From assembly GCF_050920415.1 (NCBI RefSeq), contig NZ_CP169309.1: a DNA stretch of 64,000 bases. One strand, written 5' to 3'. Shown here one piece after another: positions 9,936 to 58,694 of the stretch; position 1 is the stretch's first letter; every line of letters begins with the position of its first letter. The notes beneath the pieces were generated by a model. That model saw only the letters and a list, made by a program, of their open reading frames with translations. It searched no databases and was not told the origin of the DNA. This stretch comes from Escherichia coli. GTDB lineage: Bacteria > Pseudomonadota > Gammaproteobacteria > Enterobacterales > Enterobacteriaceae. A program made the translations under genes and the position numbers.

Positions 9936-9962
9936 CCCCCTCATGATGAGGGGGCTTTTTTT
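9936..9962. terminator. Bidirectional terminator between yehA and rcnB
   Basis: CCCCCTCA-TGA-TGAGGGGG hairpin flanked by T-run (plus) and A-run (minus reads as U-run). Confidence 0.65.
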
Positions 9963-10299
9963 AGCGATGATAAAAAATCTCACCATCGTAGGCTTTAATG
10001 ATTTTACCGTCGGTGTCGCTGATCAACACGTACGCGCCACCCATATAGGTCCAGTGCGTCCCGGCATCAGGCGCGGGCAGGTTACGTAACTGCCACTGCT
10101 TAATGTTGTACTCATCGGTGCGGTACATCTCTGGGACGGTATCGCCTGGTTTGAAATGCTTAAAGTCAGCAATGAAACTGCTTAACTCATACTTAGAAAT
10201 TCCCGAGGTATTGGTCGAACCCGCGGTGGCTGGTGCGGCCCAGGCGGCACTGGTAACCAGCAAAAGCACACCCAGCAACATCTTATTTTTAATGGTCAT
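9961..10299 (-). CDS. rcnB: Periplasmic Ni/Co homeostasis protein RcnB (YohN)
   Basis: Internal start MTIKNKMLLGVLLLVTSAAWA within ORF 9961..10479 gives the 112 aa secreted protein; sits downstream of rcnA. Confidence 0.85.
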   Translation of the reverse strand: MTIKNKMLLGVLLLVTSAAWAAPATAGSTNTSGISKYELSSFIADFKHFKPGDTVPEMYRTDEYNIKQWQLRNLPAPDAGTHWTYMGGAYVLISDTDGKIIKAYDGEIFYHR

Positions 10300-10503: not shown

Positions 10504-11325
10504 CTATCGCATAATGCCCATAAAGCCATGCACGCCCATATACACCCCAACTAAGCCAATCAACAGACTGGAAAAATAGGGGGCACGTTTAGCGAGAGTG
10601 TTAAATCCGCTCCAGCGTTTTGCGACCTGCTGAACGCTGATTGCTGCGCCAACGCCTACGGTGACTAGCGTTAACGCCAGGCCAATGCTGAAACTGACGA
10701 CCAGTGTTGCGCCTAGTGTCAGGGCTTTCAACTGAATACAAATCAACAGCACGGTAATTGCTGCCGGGCAGGGGATCAGTCCACCTGTTAACCCAAACAA
10801 TAAAATTTGCCAGTTGGTCACTTCTCTGCCATTGAAGCGTCGTTTGATGTCATTGGCATGGGCTCGTGCATGAGCATCCTGATACTCCCCATGTTCGTGA
10901 TGGTGATGATGTCCATGGTCGTGGTGATCTTCGTGATCGTGATGATACTCATGATCATGCCCGTGCATATTCTCCAGCCAGTTGCGTTCGCCGCGCCAGG
11001 TACGCCAGAACATCCAGAACGCGGTGCCAATAATGATCACCGCGGAAATCAACTGGAGCCACGGTTCTGCAGATTGAGCAGTAAAACGTTTGCTGATCAC
11101 CATCCCGCCAAAGGCAATCAACCAGACCACCGCGGTATGCGAAATGGTTGCTGCCAGTCCGAGCATCACCGCCTGTTTAATGGTGCCTTTGATGGCGATG
11201 ATAAACGCCGCCATCATCGTTTTTGAGTGCCCTGGTTCCAGGCCATGAAGCGCACCAAGTAAGATGGCGCTGGGAATGAAGAACCAGGCGTTTCCTTGCT
11301 GAAGAAGAGTGGTAAATTCGGTCAT
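10504..11325 (-). CDS. rcnA: Nickel/cobalt efflux permease RcnA
   Basis: 273 aa membrane protein with His-rich loop HGHDHEYHHDHEDHHDHGHHHHHEHGE. Confidence 0.92.
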   Translation of the reverse strand: MTEFTTLLQQGNAWFFIPSAILLGALHGLEPGHSKTMMAAFIIAIKGTIKQAVMLGLAATISHTAVVWLIAFGGMVISKRFTAQSAEPWLQLISAVIIIGTAFWMFWRTWRGERNWLENMHGHDHEYHHDHEDHHDHGHHHHHEHGEYQDAHARAHANDIKRRFNGREVTNWQILLFGLTGGLIPCPAAITVLLICIQLKALTLGATLVVSFSIGLALTLVTVGVGAAISVQQVAKRWSGFNTLAKRAPYFSSLLIGLVGVYMGVHGFMGIMR

Positions 11326-11362
11326 GATAATAATTCTTAGTATTAATTCGGCAATCCGATTC

Positions 11363-11397
11363 TACTCCCCCCCAGTACCTGATACTACCCCCCAGTA
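11363..11397. promoter_or_regulatory. Tandem RcnR operator sites (TACT-C7/C6-AGTA) in rcnA-rcnR divergent promoter
   Basis: TACTCCCCCCCAGTA at 11363-11377 and TACTACCCCCCAGTA at 11383-11397; matches the known RcnR G/C-tract operator. Confidence 0.8.
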
Positions 11398-11445
11398 GAA
11401 TAATAGTGCTATGATTTTTCATGTTCTTGTTAACCAGGTGTTGCC

Positions 11446-11718
11446 ATGTCTCATACAATCCGTGATAAACAGAAACTGAAAGCGCGTGCCAGTAAGATTC
11501 AGGGTCAGGTCGTGGCGCTCAAGAAAATGCTCGACGAGCCGCACGAATGCGCAGCTGTTCTACAACAGATTGCTGCTATCCGTGGCGCGGTAAACGGCCT
11601 GATGCGCGAAGTGATTAAGGGGCATCTGACGGAACACATCGTTCACCAGGGGGATGAGCTAAAACGTGAAGAAGATCTGGATGTCGTTCTGAAGGTGTTG
11701 GATTCATATATCAAATAA
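11446..11718 (+). CDS. rcnR: Ni/Co-responsive transcriptional repressor RcnR
   Basis: 90 aa ORF, CsoR/RcnR family, divergent from rcnA. Confidence 0.92.
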
Positions 11719-11799: not shown

Positions 11800-11940
11800 A
11801 TCATCGCAACCAAACGACTCGGGGTGCCCTTCTGCGTGAAGGCTGAGAAATACCCGTATCACCTGATCTGGATAATGCCAGCGTAGGGAAGTCACAGACC
11901 ACCAGGTCATTGCTTCTTCACGTTATGGCAGGAGCAAACT
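11800..11940 (+). promoter_or_regulatory. TPP (thi-box) riboswitch, thiM leader
   Basis: Contains GGGGTGCCCTTCTGCGTGAAGGCTGAGAAATACCCGTATCACCTGATCTGGATAATGCCAGCGTAGGGAAGTC, which matches the thiM aptamer as I recall it; lies just upstream of the thiM start. Confidence 0.9.
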
Positions 11941-19744: not shown

Positions 19745-19885
19745 ACAGCACTACCCCGTAGGGCGGATAAGGCGTTCACACCGCATCCGGCAACCTATGC
19801 CTGATGCGACGCTGAAGCGTCTTATCATGCCTACACAGCGCTGCCCCGTAGGCCGGATAAGGCGTTCGCGCCGCATCTGACATAA
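19745..19885. repeat. REP/BIME cluster
   Basis: Repeated GCCGGATAAGGCGTTCACGCCGCATCCGGCA-type palindromic units downstream of fbaB. Confidence 0.85.
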
Positions 19886-28407: not shown

Positions 28408-28494
28408 GTTTATGCATAAAAAATAAGCCCGTGTAAGGGAGATTACACAGGCTAAGGAGGTGGTTCCTGGTACAGCTAGCATTTTATGGGTTAT
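28408..28494 (-). ncRNA. cyaR: CRP-dependent Hfq-binding sRNA CyaR (RyeE)
   Basis: Minus strand reads GCTGAAAAACATAACCCATAAAATGCTAGCTGTACCAGGAACCACCTCCTTAGCCTGTGTAATCTCCCTTACACGGGCTTATTTTTT; matches CyaR as I recall it, including the terminator hairpin and U-tail. Confidence 0.88.
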
Positions 28495-28588
28495 GTTTTT
28501 CAGCGAAACGGATGATAACCTTAATAAATGCAGCTGTATGTGATCGGTTTCTAAGAATTTTCCATCCGGGAAAAATAATCGAAATTAA

Positions 28589-30608: not shown

Positions 30609-31331
30609 TTAAACGATGCGGCAGGCGTCGGCTTCCCAGCGATAACCGACACCGTAGACGGCGCGGATAAAAGACTGCTCTTCGTCCAGAGCTTCCAGCT
30701 TGCGACGCAGGTTTTTAATGTGGCTGTCGATGGTGCGGTCAGTTACTACGCGGTAGTCGTCATAAAGATGATTGAGCAATTGCTCGCGGGAGAACACTTT
30801 TCCTGGTTCATGAGAGAGTGTTTTCAGCAGACGAAATTCCGCAGGCGTCAGGTCAAGCATTTTACCGCGCCATGAAGCCTGAAAACGACCTTCGTCGATA
30901 ATCAACGGGCTTTCAGCATCCTGTTGCTGCAACTCACGCTGCGGTTTGCAACGGCGCAAAATGGTTTTGACGCGTGCTACCACTTCCCGTGGGCTGTACG
31001 GCTTGCAGATATAATCATCTGCGCCAATCTCTAGCCCGAGCAGGCGGTCGATCTCTTCGATTTTTGCTGTCACCATCACGATCGGAATGTCAGAAAAACG
31101 ACGAATCTCCCGACACAACGTCAGGCCATCGGTGCCAGGGAGCATCAGATCCAACAGGATCAGATCCGGTGGTGTCTGGCGCACATATGGCAGTACCTGA
31201 TCGCCGTGGCTGATAAGCGTCGGCGCATAGCTCGCAGCACGCAGATAATCAATAAGCAACTGCCCCAGCTTCGGTTCATCTTCCACGATCAAAATACGTG
31301 GCGTGTTTTCGTCGATTGGTAACTCGGTCAT
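30609..31331 (-). CDS. baeR: Envelope-stress response regulator (OmpR family)
   Basis: 240 aa; receiver domain plus winged-helix. Confidence 0.93.
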
Positions 31332-32731
31332 ACTTCTCTCTGTAAATCCCGTTCCAGCGGTAACTCTACTGTAATGCTTACCCCGCCAAAAGGCGAATGA
31401 GCGGCAACAATGCGACCATTATGTGCTTCAACAATGTTAAGACAAATAGCCAGCCCCAGGCCGGAACCGCCGCTGGCACGGTTGCGGGAACCTTCGGTGC
31501 GATAAAAACGCTCAAACAATTTTTGCAGTTGATCGTCACTAACGCCCGGTGCACTGTCGGCAAAGGTCAGGCGCACCGTTTTGTCATGTTGCTCGGCAGA
31601 GATATGCAGGCTGCCGCCGCTGTCGGTATAGCGCAGGCTGTTTTCCAGTAAGTTATTGAACAACTGCATTAAACGATCGCGATCGCCAAATACGGTAATG
31701 CTGTCTGGTAGGGAAAATTGCAGTTTCAGCCCGCGGCTGGCGAAACGCTCACGAAATGCGCCACCCGCGACTTCCAGTAGCGGGATCAGATCCACCGACG
31801 ATTTCTGGTAGGCGAGAGCGCCTTCATCAGACATCGACAATTGATGAAGATCATCCACCAGTTTGGTCAGTGTACCGACCTCTGCCTGTAAAGAAGCCAC
31901 CGTCTCCGGCGTGAATTTACGCACGCCATCCTGAATAGCTTCCAGTTCGCCGCGCAGTACCGCTAAAGGCGTGCGCAGCTCGTGGGAGATATCGGCCATA
32001 AAATCGCGGCGCATCTGTTGGTTTTTCTCCAGCGTGCTGGCGAGCTGGTTGAAGTCTTGCGCCAGTTTGCCCAATTCATCTTCGCTGGTGGGCGTCACGC
32101 GAGTAGTGAAATCGCCCGCTGCCAGTTTGTGTGTACCGTCCACCAGTCGTTTGACCGGAGCCAGCAAACCGCGCGCCAGTGGGAATGTCGCCAGCGCCGC
32201 TAACAAGGTAGATAAAGCGACAATCAGCCAACTGGTTTGCCTCTGTTGTCTGTCAAAATTGATGTCGGTATTGCGGGTCAGTCGTTCAACAGGGGAGGCG
32301 ATCACCGCACCCACTTCCGCCCCATTGACCATAATGGGCCGCCGTGTGCCGTCTGGTGGAATCGGTGCTCGCGGGCCAACCAGCACTTTGTTGTTTTGAT
32401 CAACCACCCAGAATTGCGTGCGCCAACCGTGTGGCGGCATACCGGGGCCGGGCTTATCTTCGTTGTTATCATGCTCCAGCGAACGTAGGATCTGAAATAC
32501 AAAGCGATCGTTATTACGCAGGAAGCGCCAGTTCCCGTGCTGGGCGTACTGCTCACCAAGCGCATCGCCGAGCATTTGCAGCCGTTGTTCATTACCATGC
32601 TTGATGTAATCGATAAAGCCGCGCTCAAAACTGATACGTACCGCCCAGTGCATCGTGATCAATAAGACAATGCAGGTGGCGAAAATCGCCAGAAACAGTT
32701 TGCCGGTAATACCGGGTCGCCAGAACTTCAT
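31328..32731 (-). CDS. baeS: Envelope-stress sensor histidine kinase
   Basis: 467 aa; H-box [12 protein letters not shown], ATPase G-boxes; 4 bp overlaps with mdtD and baeR. Confidence 0.93.
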
Positions 32732-41821: not shown

Positions 41822-41962
41822 AACGGGAAAGCCCCTCCCGAGGAAGGGGCCTTAAATAAGGAAAGGGTCATGATGAAGTGGATCATCATCGTGGTGCTCT
41901 TAGTCGTTAGCTACCCAGCTTACTAAGACTACCAGGGCGGGGGAAACCCCGCTCTACCCTCA
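41822..41962 (-). ncRNA. Sib-family antisense sRNA (antitoxin), copy 1; ends approximate
   Basis: Minus strand has TTGACA (41992-41997), 17 bp spacer and a weak -10 (TACTTT); transcript would fully overlap the ibs ORF and end at a GC-rich hairpin + U tract near 41822. Confidence 0.6.
41869..41925 (+). CDS. Ibs-family type I toxin, 18 aa hydrophobic peptide (MMKWIIIVVLLVVSYPAY)
   Basis: ATGATGAAG start 8 nt after AAAGGG RBS; hydrophobic 18-residue peptide; below the ORF-track size cutoff. Confidence 0.8.
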
Positions 41963-42150
41963 CTCCTGAAAGTATGCCTTCACAATCAGATTGTCAATCC
42001 GCAGGCTTTGTAGTCTGCGATCCTGCCAGCAAATATTCTTTGCGAGACGTTACGCAATAATCACAGATGAAACTATTTTATCTACGCGTTAGCGATAGAC
42101 TGCATTCAGGGCAAAAGGAGGTAGGCCGCCGATTTCAGCGGGACGCTGAA

Positions 42151-42291
42151 ACGGGAAAGCCCCTCCCGAGGAAGGGGCCTTAAATAAGGAAAGGGTCATG
42201 ATGAAGATACTCATCATCGTGGTGCTCTTAGTCATTAGCTTACCGGCTTACTAAGACTACCAGGGCGGGGGAAACCCCGCTCTACCCTCAC
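42151..42291 (-). ncRNA. Sib-family antisense sRNA, copy 2; ends approximate
   Basis: Same promoter and terminator elements as copy 1, shifted by the repeat period. Confidence 0.6.
42198..42254 (+). CDS. Ibs-family type I toxin, 18 aa (MMKILIIVVLLVISLPAY)
   Basis: Same architecture as copy 1, 329 bp downstream. Confidence 0.8.
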   Translation: MMKILIIVVLLVISLPAY

Positions 42292-42478
42292 TCCTGAAAG
42301 TATGCCTTCACAATCAGATTGTCAATCCGCAGGCTTTGTAGTCTGCGATCCTGCCAGCAAATATTCTTTGCGAGACGTTACGCAATAATCACATGTGAAA
42401 CTATTTTATCTGCAAGTTAGCGATAGACTGCTTGCATGGCGAAAGGAGGTAGGCCGCCGATTTCAGCGGGACGCTGAA

Positions 42479-42625
42479 ACGGGAAAGCCCCTCCCGAGGA
42501 AGGGGCCTTAAATAAGGAAAGGGTCATGATGAAGCTACTCATCATCGTGGTGCTCTTAGTTATTAGCTGGCCAGCTTACTAAGACTACCAGGGCGGGGGA
42601 AACCCCGCTCTACCCTCACTCCTGA
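42479..42625 (-). ncRNA. Sib-family antisense sRNA, copy 3; ends approximate, promoter region diverged
   Basis: TTGACA -35 retained, but the spacer and -10 differ from copies 1 and 2. Confidence 0.5.
42526..42582 (+). CDS. Ibs-family type I toxin, 18 aa (MMKLLIIVVLLVISWPAY)
   Basis: Same architecture; third copy. Confidence 0.8.
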   Translation: MMKLLIIVVLLVISWPAY

Positions 42626-42799
42626 AGTTATGTTACTCCACCCTTATTGTCAATCTGTAAGTCCACGTTCTTGCGGGGCGAATAGCAAAACCCTCTGCGC
42701 TTATGGGCCGAATTCTGAAAGTTGCTTTGCCTGCTCTTATTTCATTATTGCAGTCGGTATGATACCGGACCTCAATAATTCTCTAAGAAAGGATTTCTT

Positions 42800-58214: not shown

Positions 58215-58682
58215 AGTAAGTACAAAACCTATTCGTTGTATGACAAATGTCACAATTCGATCATGGATAAATCGGGGCAAAAATGCAATGTTGCAGCACT
58301 ATTTATCTCATATAATTTGAGGGTTATAACCTCACATTATCCCTGAATTAAAAGTGGCAATAATAAAACATTATTTAAGAAATATCGCATATGGAGACAC
58401 TATATTAATTATTGTCAACCTAAAGAAATTCCTAAAAAACATATTGATTGACACTTAATATAATTCTTAAAAATAGCCAATTGCCGAATTGTTACCTTGC
58501 CTGCTATTCCGTTAGCTGTAACACTTCCTCCTGCATTATTGGAAGCCAATATTCAATTACCATAATGCCACCTTATATCTGGAAAATTAATTCACGGAAT
58601 AACGCTTTTTCATAATCAACTGCATGATGAAAGAGTTAGAAAATCTAAACTAAATCAGTGTATTGGTAGCTAAAAAGCCAGG

Positions 58683-58694
58683 GGCGGTAGCGTG
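58683..58694 (+). promoter_or_regulatory. ops element (GGCGGTAGCGTG) in JUMPstart leader of the wza/colanic acid operon
   Basis: Exact ops 12-mer about 180 nt upstream of wza in a long untranslated leader; RfaH-dependent antitermination signal. Confidence 0.8.

Follow-up and report, generated by a model that had tools for sequence, protein, structure and literature searches.

The rcnR/rcnA-rcnB locus of an Escherichia coli genome: tandem RcnR operators and a histidine-rich RcnA loop of variable length

The window analysed here, a stretch of 64,000 nucleotides of E. coli contig NZ_CP169309.1 (assembly GCF_050920415.1), carries rcnA (10504..11325, minus strand), encoding a 273-aa protein of the NicO family, with rcnR divergent and upstream of it and rcnB downstream. 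The rcnR gene (11446..11718, plus strand) encodes a 90-aa Ni(II)/Co(II)-responsive CsoR/RcnR (DUF156) repressor, and rcnB (9961..10299, minus strand) a periplasmic accessory protein of the efflux system, of 112 aa. A divergent control region of 120 bp (11326..11445) separates rcnA from rcnR.

RcnA matched the NCBIfam nickel/cobalt efflux transporter model NF007454 with 554.6 bits (cut-off 195), the alignment covering residues 1-273 of 273, and the Pfam NicO model PF03824 with 234.7 bits (cut-off 27.7). RcnR scored 197.3 bits against the NCBIfam equivalog NF011613 (cut-off 138). The rcnA and rcnR identities proposed in the earlier note are thus borne out by family models above curated cut-offs. 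RcnB matched Pfam RcnB (PF11776) with 67.8 bits, in agreement with the RefSeq annotation of matching genomes, and differs from K-12 RcnB by one amino acid. RcnR is identical to its K-12 counterpart; the Ni/Co ligands His3, Glu34, Cys35, Glu63 and His64 (ligand set as given in PMC7055735) and the RASK motif were all found in it. Since a role of K-12 RcnA in Ni(II)/Co(II) efflux and resistance is reported in the literature, the window RcnA is assigned by orthology as a Ni(II)/Co(II) efflux permease. No evidence contradicting the identification of the rcn locus was found, and we consider it very probable that this is the canonical Escherichia rcnR / rcnA-rcnB nickel-cobalt efflux module.

In a PDB sequence search, the nearest solved structural relatives of RcnR were FrmR and InrS. 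The same search with RcnA found no NicO-family structure; its matches to a cobaltochelatase and a bile-acid transporter were weak and implausible, and were judged spurious products of the His-rich tract.

The outer neighbours of the locus are K-12-like, with yehA on one side and a TPP riboswitch followed by thiM-thiD on the other. The riboswitch (Rfam RF00059, 71.5 bits; 11810-11906, plus strand) lies directly after rcnR, upstream of thiM-thiD, and is also annotated in K-12. Identity to K-12, taken gene by gene, is about 93-97% over the window; the exception is baeS (31328-32731), at 88.8% against 95-97% for its neighbours, which may be a recombinant or fast-evolving allele of this sensor kinase. 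We also considered rcnA as a local hotspot of divergence and rejected it, its 95.0% identity to K-12 falling within the window-wide range. The rcn region was found at 99% identity or more in 16-17 of 5,426 complete E. coli genomes, the best match being MFDS1022581 at 100%. Together with the 93-97% identity to K-12, the small number of such matches places the window in a rare and divergent lineage of Escherichia. Elsewhere in the window, three genes for SIB antitoxin RNA lie in tandem at 41855-42653 on the minus strand (Rfam RF00113, 138-140 bits each); because K-12 is annotated with two Ibs genes at this position, an extra copy of the Ibs/Sib type I toxin-antitoxin system is apparent in this lineage. 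Matches above the Rfam gathering threshold were also obtained for the sRNA CyaR (28421-28506, minus strand), naRNA4 (19761-19831, plus strand) and a JUMPstart element (58656-58694, plus strand).

The control region between rcnA and rcnR contains two matches to the published RcnR operator motif, both assigned to the minus strand, which is the rcnA-sense strand. The rcnA-proximal operator (11363..11377) reads TACT-G7-AGTA and the rcnR-proximal one (11383..11397) TACT-G6-T-AGTA; on the strand as given, these are TACTCCCCCCCAGTA (TACT-C7-AGTA) and TACTACCCCCCAGTA (TACT-A-C6-AGTA), respectively. Each operator is 15 bp long with 7 bp between TACT and AGTA, and the reverse complement of the pair is TACTGGGGGGTAGTA-TCAGG-TACTGGGGGGGAGTA, exactly as in K-12. 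The earlier note had described two TACT-C(6-7)-AGTA sites 20 bp apart. Both sites are present, but the second reads TACT-A-C6-AGTA rather than TACT-C6-AGTA, and the distance of 20 bp is correct from start to start and not as the gap, which is 5 bp. With two mismatches allowed, no further operator matches were found in the 64-kb window (0.15 expected by chance). The 35-bp double operator is the same as in K-12; three SNPs are located elsewhere in the 120-bp spacer and none inside the operators.

The RcnR operator has been published as TACT-G6-N-AGTA in two copies (Iwig & Chivers 2009, cited in PMC7055735, PMC3902906 and PMC7105576), and on the basis of this motif the sites in the window are identified as the published operators. 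According to the same three papers, two type-1 sites stand in tandem, RcnR is reported to bind each of them 1:1 via the TACT/AGTA inverted repeats, and the unbroken G tract gives the operator A-form character. Repression of both rcnA and rcnR through the shared operator is likewise reported (Iwig & Chivers 2009; Blaha 2011; cited in PMC7055735, PMC3902906 and PMC7105576).

The tandem arrangement is widely conserved. A scan of one genome per species with the pattern TACTG6NAGTA-N{1,15}-TACTG6NAGTA found it in 77 species of genera that include Escherichia, Citrobacter, Salmonella, Enterobacter, Klebsiella, Raoultella and Kosakonia, and further Cedecea, Rahnella, Hafnia, Serratia, Erwinia, Tatumella, Buttiauxella, Vibrio, Shewanella and Chromobacterium. 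The gap between the operators was 5 bp in 61 species and 6 bp in 16, with no other value although 1-15 bp were allowed. Polarity was equally strict: the G6-T site faced rcnR in 77 of 77 species, and the G7 site was on the rcnA side in 76 of 77. The rcnR gene adjoined 74 of the 77 tandem operators and rcnA adjoined 70; where flanks were available, the tandem operator always lay between the two genes. RcnR identity among these species fell to about 58%, and the sequence of the spacer between the two operators varied freely. A spacing of 20 or 21 bp corresponds to approximately two helical turns, as would be expected if two tetramers must occupy the same DNA face. The fixed phasing supports a functional tandem; for the cooperative binding proposed in the earlier note it is indirect support, not proof.

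Within E. coli, a 64-bp segment containing the K-12 operators was found exactly in 4,815 of 5,346 genomes and with a single change in approximately 530; at most nine genomes lacked most of it. A rare variant is that of strain 97_3250 (NZ_CP074773.1), in which a precise 20-bp deletion between direct repeats leaves one TACT-G7-AGTA site. Searching with the collapsed single-site sequence gave no usable count, since its matches joined the two halves across normal tandem operators. The clean deletion in 97_3250 is compatible with the reading that only one site matters for repression, the other having arisen redundantly by duplication of 20 bp, and a natural genome with one site indicates that a single-site architecture is at least viable. 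Nevertheless, we regard this reading as very improbable. The two sites, their order, the distinct N base (T versus G) and the 5/6-bp gap have been kept in 77 species across the whole range of RcnR divergence, and the segment is almost never lost in E. coli. The related objection that only one of the sites may be bound is already answered by the literature, which reports RcnR recognition of both motifs (PMC7055735, PMC3902906); the EMSA comparison suggested in the earlier note has thereby largely been carried out.

In the eight variant promoter regions that were fetched, every length change of 1-2 bp fell in the G7 run of the rcnA-proximal site, while the G6 tract of site 1 next to it kept its length. 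Exact queries, whose counts are lower bounds among about 5,350 E. coli genomes, found this run as G6 in at least 118 genomes and as G8 in at least 93. Carriers of G6 include several O111 strains, among them the reference strain 11128, the O157:H7 strains EC4115, SS17 and TT12B, and SaT040; among the carriers of G8 are five or more O121 strains that come from different laboratories. A single assembly, SY3626, combines a G9 tract with an IS1 at the 3' end of rcnR, and a G-to-T change in the tract of site 1 is unique to FDAARGOS_1303. The G6, G8 and G9 alleles shift the half-site spacing from 7 bp to 6, 8 and 9 bp, respectively.

Homopolymer-length errors are typical of long-read assemblies, and the G6, G8 and G9 forms might therefore be sequencing or assembly artefacts. 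Some carriers would fit this explanation: BE2-5 also has a rcnA annotated as frameshifted, and ER2683 and DTU-1 are laboratory K-12 derivatives whose parent has G7. As an account of the variants as a whole, we find it rather unlikely. G6 is repeated in several independently sequenced O111 genomes, including that of strain 11128, a reference from 2009, and G8 in O121 genomes of different laboratories, a pattern that inheritance predicts and random error does not; moreover, the adjacent G6 tract showed no length variation among the fetched regions. Since they recur within serotype lineages, many of the G-run variants are more likely to be inherited than to be homopolymer errors, while some sporadic cases could be errors.

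The outer half-sites of the operator pair overlap two candidate -10 hexamers, both TAGAAT. The rcnA candidate (11359..11364, minus strand) overlaps the outer AGTA half-site on its side, and the rcnR candidate (11396..11401, plus strand) overlaps the other. The GAAT that follows the rcnA-side AGTA is conserved at 75 loci (G 70%, A 60-70%, A 80%, T 90%), and a mirror-image ATTC before the rcnR-side TACT is conserved across 76 loci. From these sequences, we infer that the hexamers serve the divergent promoters of rcnA and rcnR as -10 elements, in which case bound RcnR would occlude both. Autoregulation of rcnR through the shared operator is published (Blaha 2011, cited in PMC7055735), consistent with the hexamer on the rcnR side. 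An equally plausible alternative is that the conserved ATTC...GAAT bases extend the element recognised by RcnR. The -35 hexamers matching the TAGAAT candidates are poor. A simple consensus promoter scan did not report the hexamers and gave promoter-like sites no more numerous than in shuffled sequence; its sole match on the rcnA side was dropped, since it ends 2 nt from the ATG.

The His/Asp/Glu-rich tract of the RcnA central loop lies at 10885..10965 on the minus strand. Residues 121-147 are exactly HGHDHEYHHDHEDHHDHGHHHHHEHGE, so the 27-residue loop quoted in the earlier note is present as described; its count of 16 histidines was one too high. The loop is composed of 15 His, 4 Asp, 4 Glu, 3 Gly and 1 Tyr, encoded by eight CAT, seven CAC, three GAT, one GAC, two GAA, two GAG and other codons. 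It is located inside a hydrophilic segment of approximately residues 109-173, the hydrophobic blocks stopping at about residue 108 and restarting at about residue 174. This position between hydrophobic blocks, together with flanking Arg/Lys residues, makes a cytoplasmic location of the loop probable. A metal-binding role has been ascribed to the His-rich region of RcnA (Rodrigue 2005, via a citing paper).

The tract had been described as a repetitive CAT/CAC/GAT sequence prone to length polymorphism. Such variation does occur among E. coli alleles, but the window allele itself is weakly repetitive: Tandem Repeats Finder detected an imperfect 9/18-bp periodicity alone (66-73% matches), and the sole perfect repeat is (CATCAC)2, with no long perfect array. 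With so weak a repeat structure, the window allele is predicted to be less prone to slippage than, for example, the O157:H7 allele.

Loop length was compared in 12 full-length E. coli rcnA alleles, namely the window and eleven fetched alleles. RcnA ranged from 267 to 283 aa, and all indels fell within the loop, between NWLENM and EYQDAHA, giving loops of 20-36 aa with 12-22 His and 6-13 Asp/Glu. The remaining ~246 residues differed from the window at 1-4 positions per allele, against a nucleotide divergence of 3.4-5.9%. In a systematic 60-row sample from 5,365 E. coli genomes, 59 rows were full-length; RcnA had 274 aa in 48 of these (~81%), and the others were 267-283 aa long. Strain 142 and the O157:H7 strain Z1766 are the same over 1,848 bp of rcnB-rcnA-rcnR save for 12 bp, (GACCAC)4 versus (GACCAC)6. 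This difference of two units bears the signature of recent replication slippage. Given the range of lengths and this pair of alleles, the loop is not invariant across E. coli, and the comparison among strains suggested in the earlier note comes out in favour of its claim of length variation. No frameshifting slips in the loop were seen among the E. coli alleles examined. Annotations of rcnA as frameshifted (pseudogene) exist in a few E. coli, e.g., strains 268.2 and BE2-5, and may reflect real loss or assembly error; in 268.2, the frame breaks at approximately codon 36.

When genera are compared, RcnA proteins encoded behind the same operator have His-rich segments of 4 to 73 aa. Orthologues of 358-377 aa in Raoultella, Rahnella, Buttiauxella, Tatumella and Vibrio also sit behind the tandem operator; in these, an insert of about 100 aa in the central loop (IDTGHGxVELSIFE...RLSLGH) replaces most of the His tract. 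A Pfam search gave no match for this insert. The range of lengths and the insert-bearing orthologues make the His tract a flexible rather than invariant feature of the family. Some orthologues behind the tandem operator are nearly without it, which implies that neither the length of the loop nor even its presence is essential to the family.

These data bear on whether the length of the loop has any adaptive meaning. It might be a neutral low-complexity linker that drifts in length by slippage, with selection acting on its H/D/E composition alone, or on nothing. The spread of lengths within E. coli and across genera next to an unchanged transmembrane core is in line with such drift, and the predominance of 274 aa in the systematic E. 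coli sample would fit lengths drifting about an optimum that is tolerated, an argument already made for Salmonella STTR5. Against this stand the H/D/E composition kept by every E. coli allele, the lack of frameshifting loop slips among the alleles examined and the metal-binding role given to the region in the published work cited above. On balance, we give a neutral linker somewhat less than an even chance.

Taken as a nickel-cobalt efflux module, the locus would operate as follows. At low metal, apo-RcnR tetramers would sit on both type-1 operators (TACT-G6-N-AGTA), which, at 20 bp centre to centre or about two helical turns, would place them on the same DNA face. The operator pair would span the core of both divergent promoters, resulting in joint repression of rcnA-rcnB and rcnR. 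Binding of Ni(II) or Co(II) by RcnR, through the N-terminal amine and the five side-chain ligands His3, Glu34, Cys35, Glu63 and His64, would take the repressor off the DNA and allow RcnA to be made. RcnA would then export the metal, with its His/Asp/Glu-rich loop as a putative metal-binding tract, and the CAY/GAY codon repeats of the loop would slip in replication to give in-frame length variants. The basis for RcnR binding to both sites and for its metal-induced release is the literature; the topology and role of the loop are predictions from the protein sequence.

The natural variants allow a further, speculative reading, in which two mutable tracts of the locus, the His-loop repeat and the G7 run of the operator, tune Ni/Co efflux in natural populations. 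The codon repeat would alter transporter capacity. The G6 form (O111, some O157:H7), the G8 form (O121), G9 and the 20-bp deletion, by changing half-site spacing, would cause a heritable change in RcnR repression of rcnA and rcnR. We consider such tuning unlikely. Whatever their effect, the G6, G8, G9 and single-site variants could serve as ready-made tests of the importance of spacing and of the tandem arrangement in RcnR repression.

Tandem RcnR operators and a length-variable His loop are both established knowledge; the locus is a metal-efflux switch of the textbook kind, so that nothing new comes from the core finding. In practice, it is useful for anchoring a correct annotation of the window. 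As side results, the survey provides rough frequencies for a repeat in E. coli rcnA that resembles a typing marker, and it demonstrates strict phasing and polarity of the operators across Enterobacterales, Vibrio, Shewanella and Chromobacterium. The operator variants listed from natural strains are possibly the sole mildly new element, and a minor one; no description of this operator polymorphism was found in the searchable literature.

The closest known system is the K-12 rcnR-rcnAB locus (Rodrigue 2005; Iwig 2006; Iwig & Chivers 2009; Blaha 2011; Bleriot 2011). The order yehA / rcnB-rcnA / rcnR / thiMD and the 120-bp intergenic region are common to K-12 and the window. The two rcnA genes are 95.0% identical at the DNA level, like the window as a whole. 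RcnA is 273 aa long in the window and 274 aa in K-12, the loops being HGHDHEYHHDHEDHHDHGHHHHHEHG and HGHDYEHHHHDHEHHHDHGHHHHHEHG, respectively, with two amino acid changes outside the loop. The window sites show no difference from the type-1 operators of the CsoR/RcnR (DUF156) family, whereas in some E. coli relatives the half-site spacing is changed from 7 to 6, 8 or 9.

For the loop, the nearest parallels are bacterial typing markers. The rcnA/yohM repeat is the STTR5 marker in Salmonella Typhimurium and a 12-bp VNTR in Paratyphi A. In Klebsiella pneumoniae, rcnA contains the 6-bp MLVA locus 27, with 0-19 copies, and loop insertions have been noted in clinical Klebsiella. The E. coli MLVA locus CVN014 was also considered as an rcnA repeat and dropped, because the paper gives no such link and the copy numbers do not fit. 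STTR5 and Klebsiella locus 27 are in-frame His-Asp hexanucleotide repeats in the same RcnA loop, with copy numbers that differ between close relatives. The O157-type allele of E. coli, with its (GACCAC)4 and (GACCAC)6 forms, resembles STTR5 in this respect. The window allele, in contrast, has no long perfect array, and in most E. coli alleles CAY and GAY codons form a mosaic, not a clean microsatellite.
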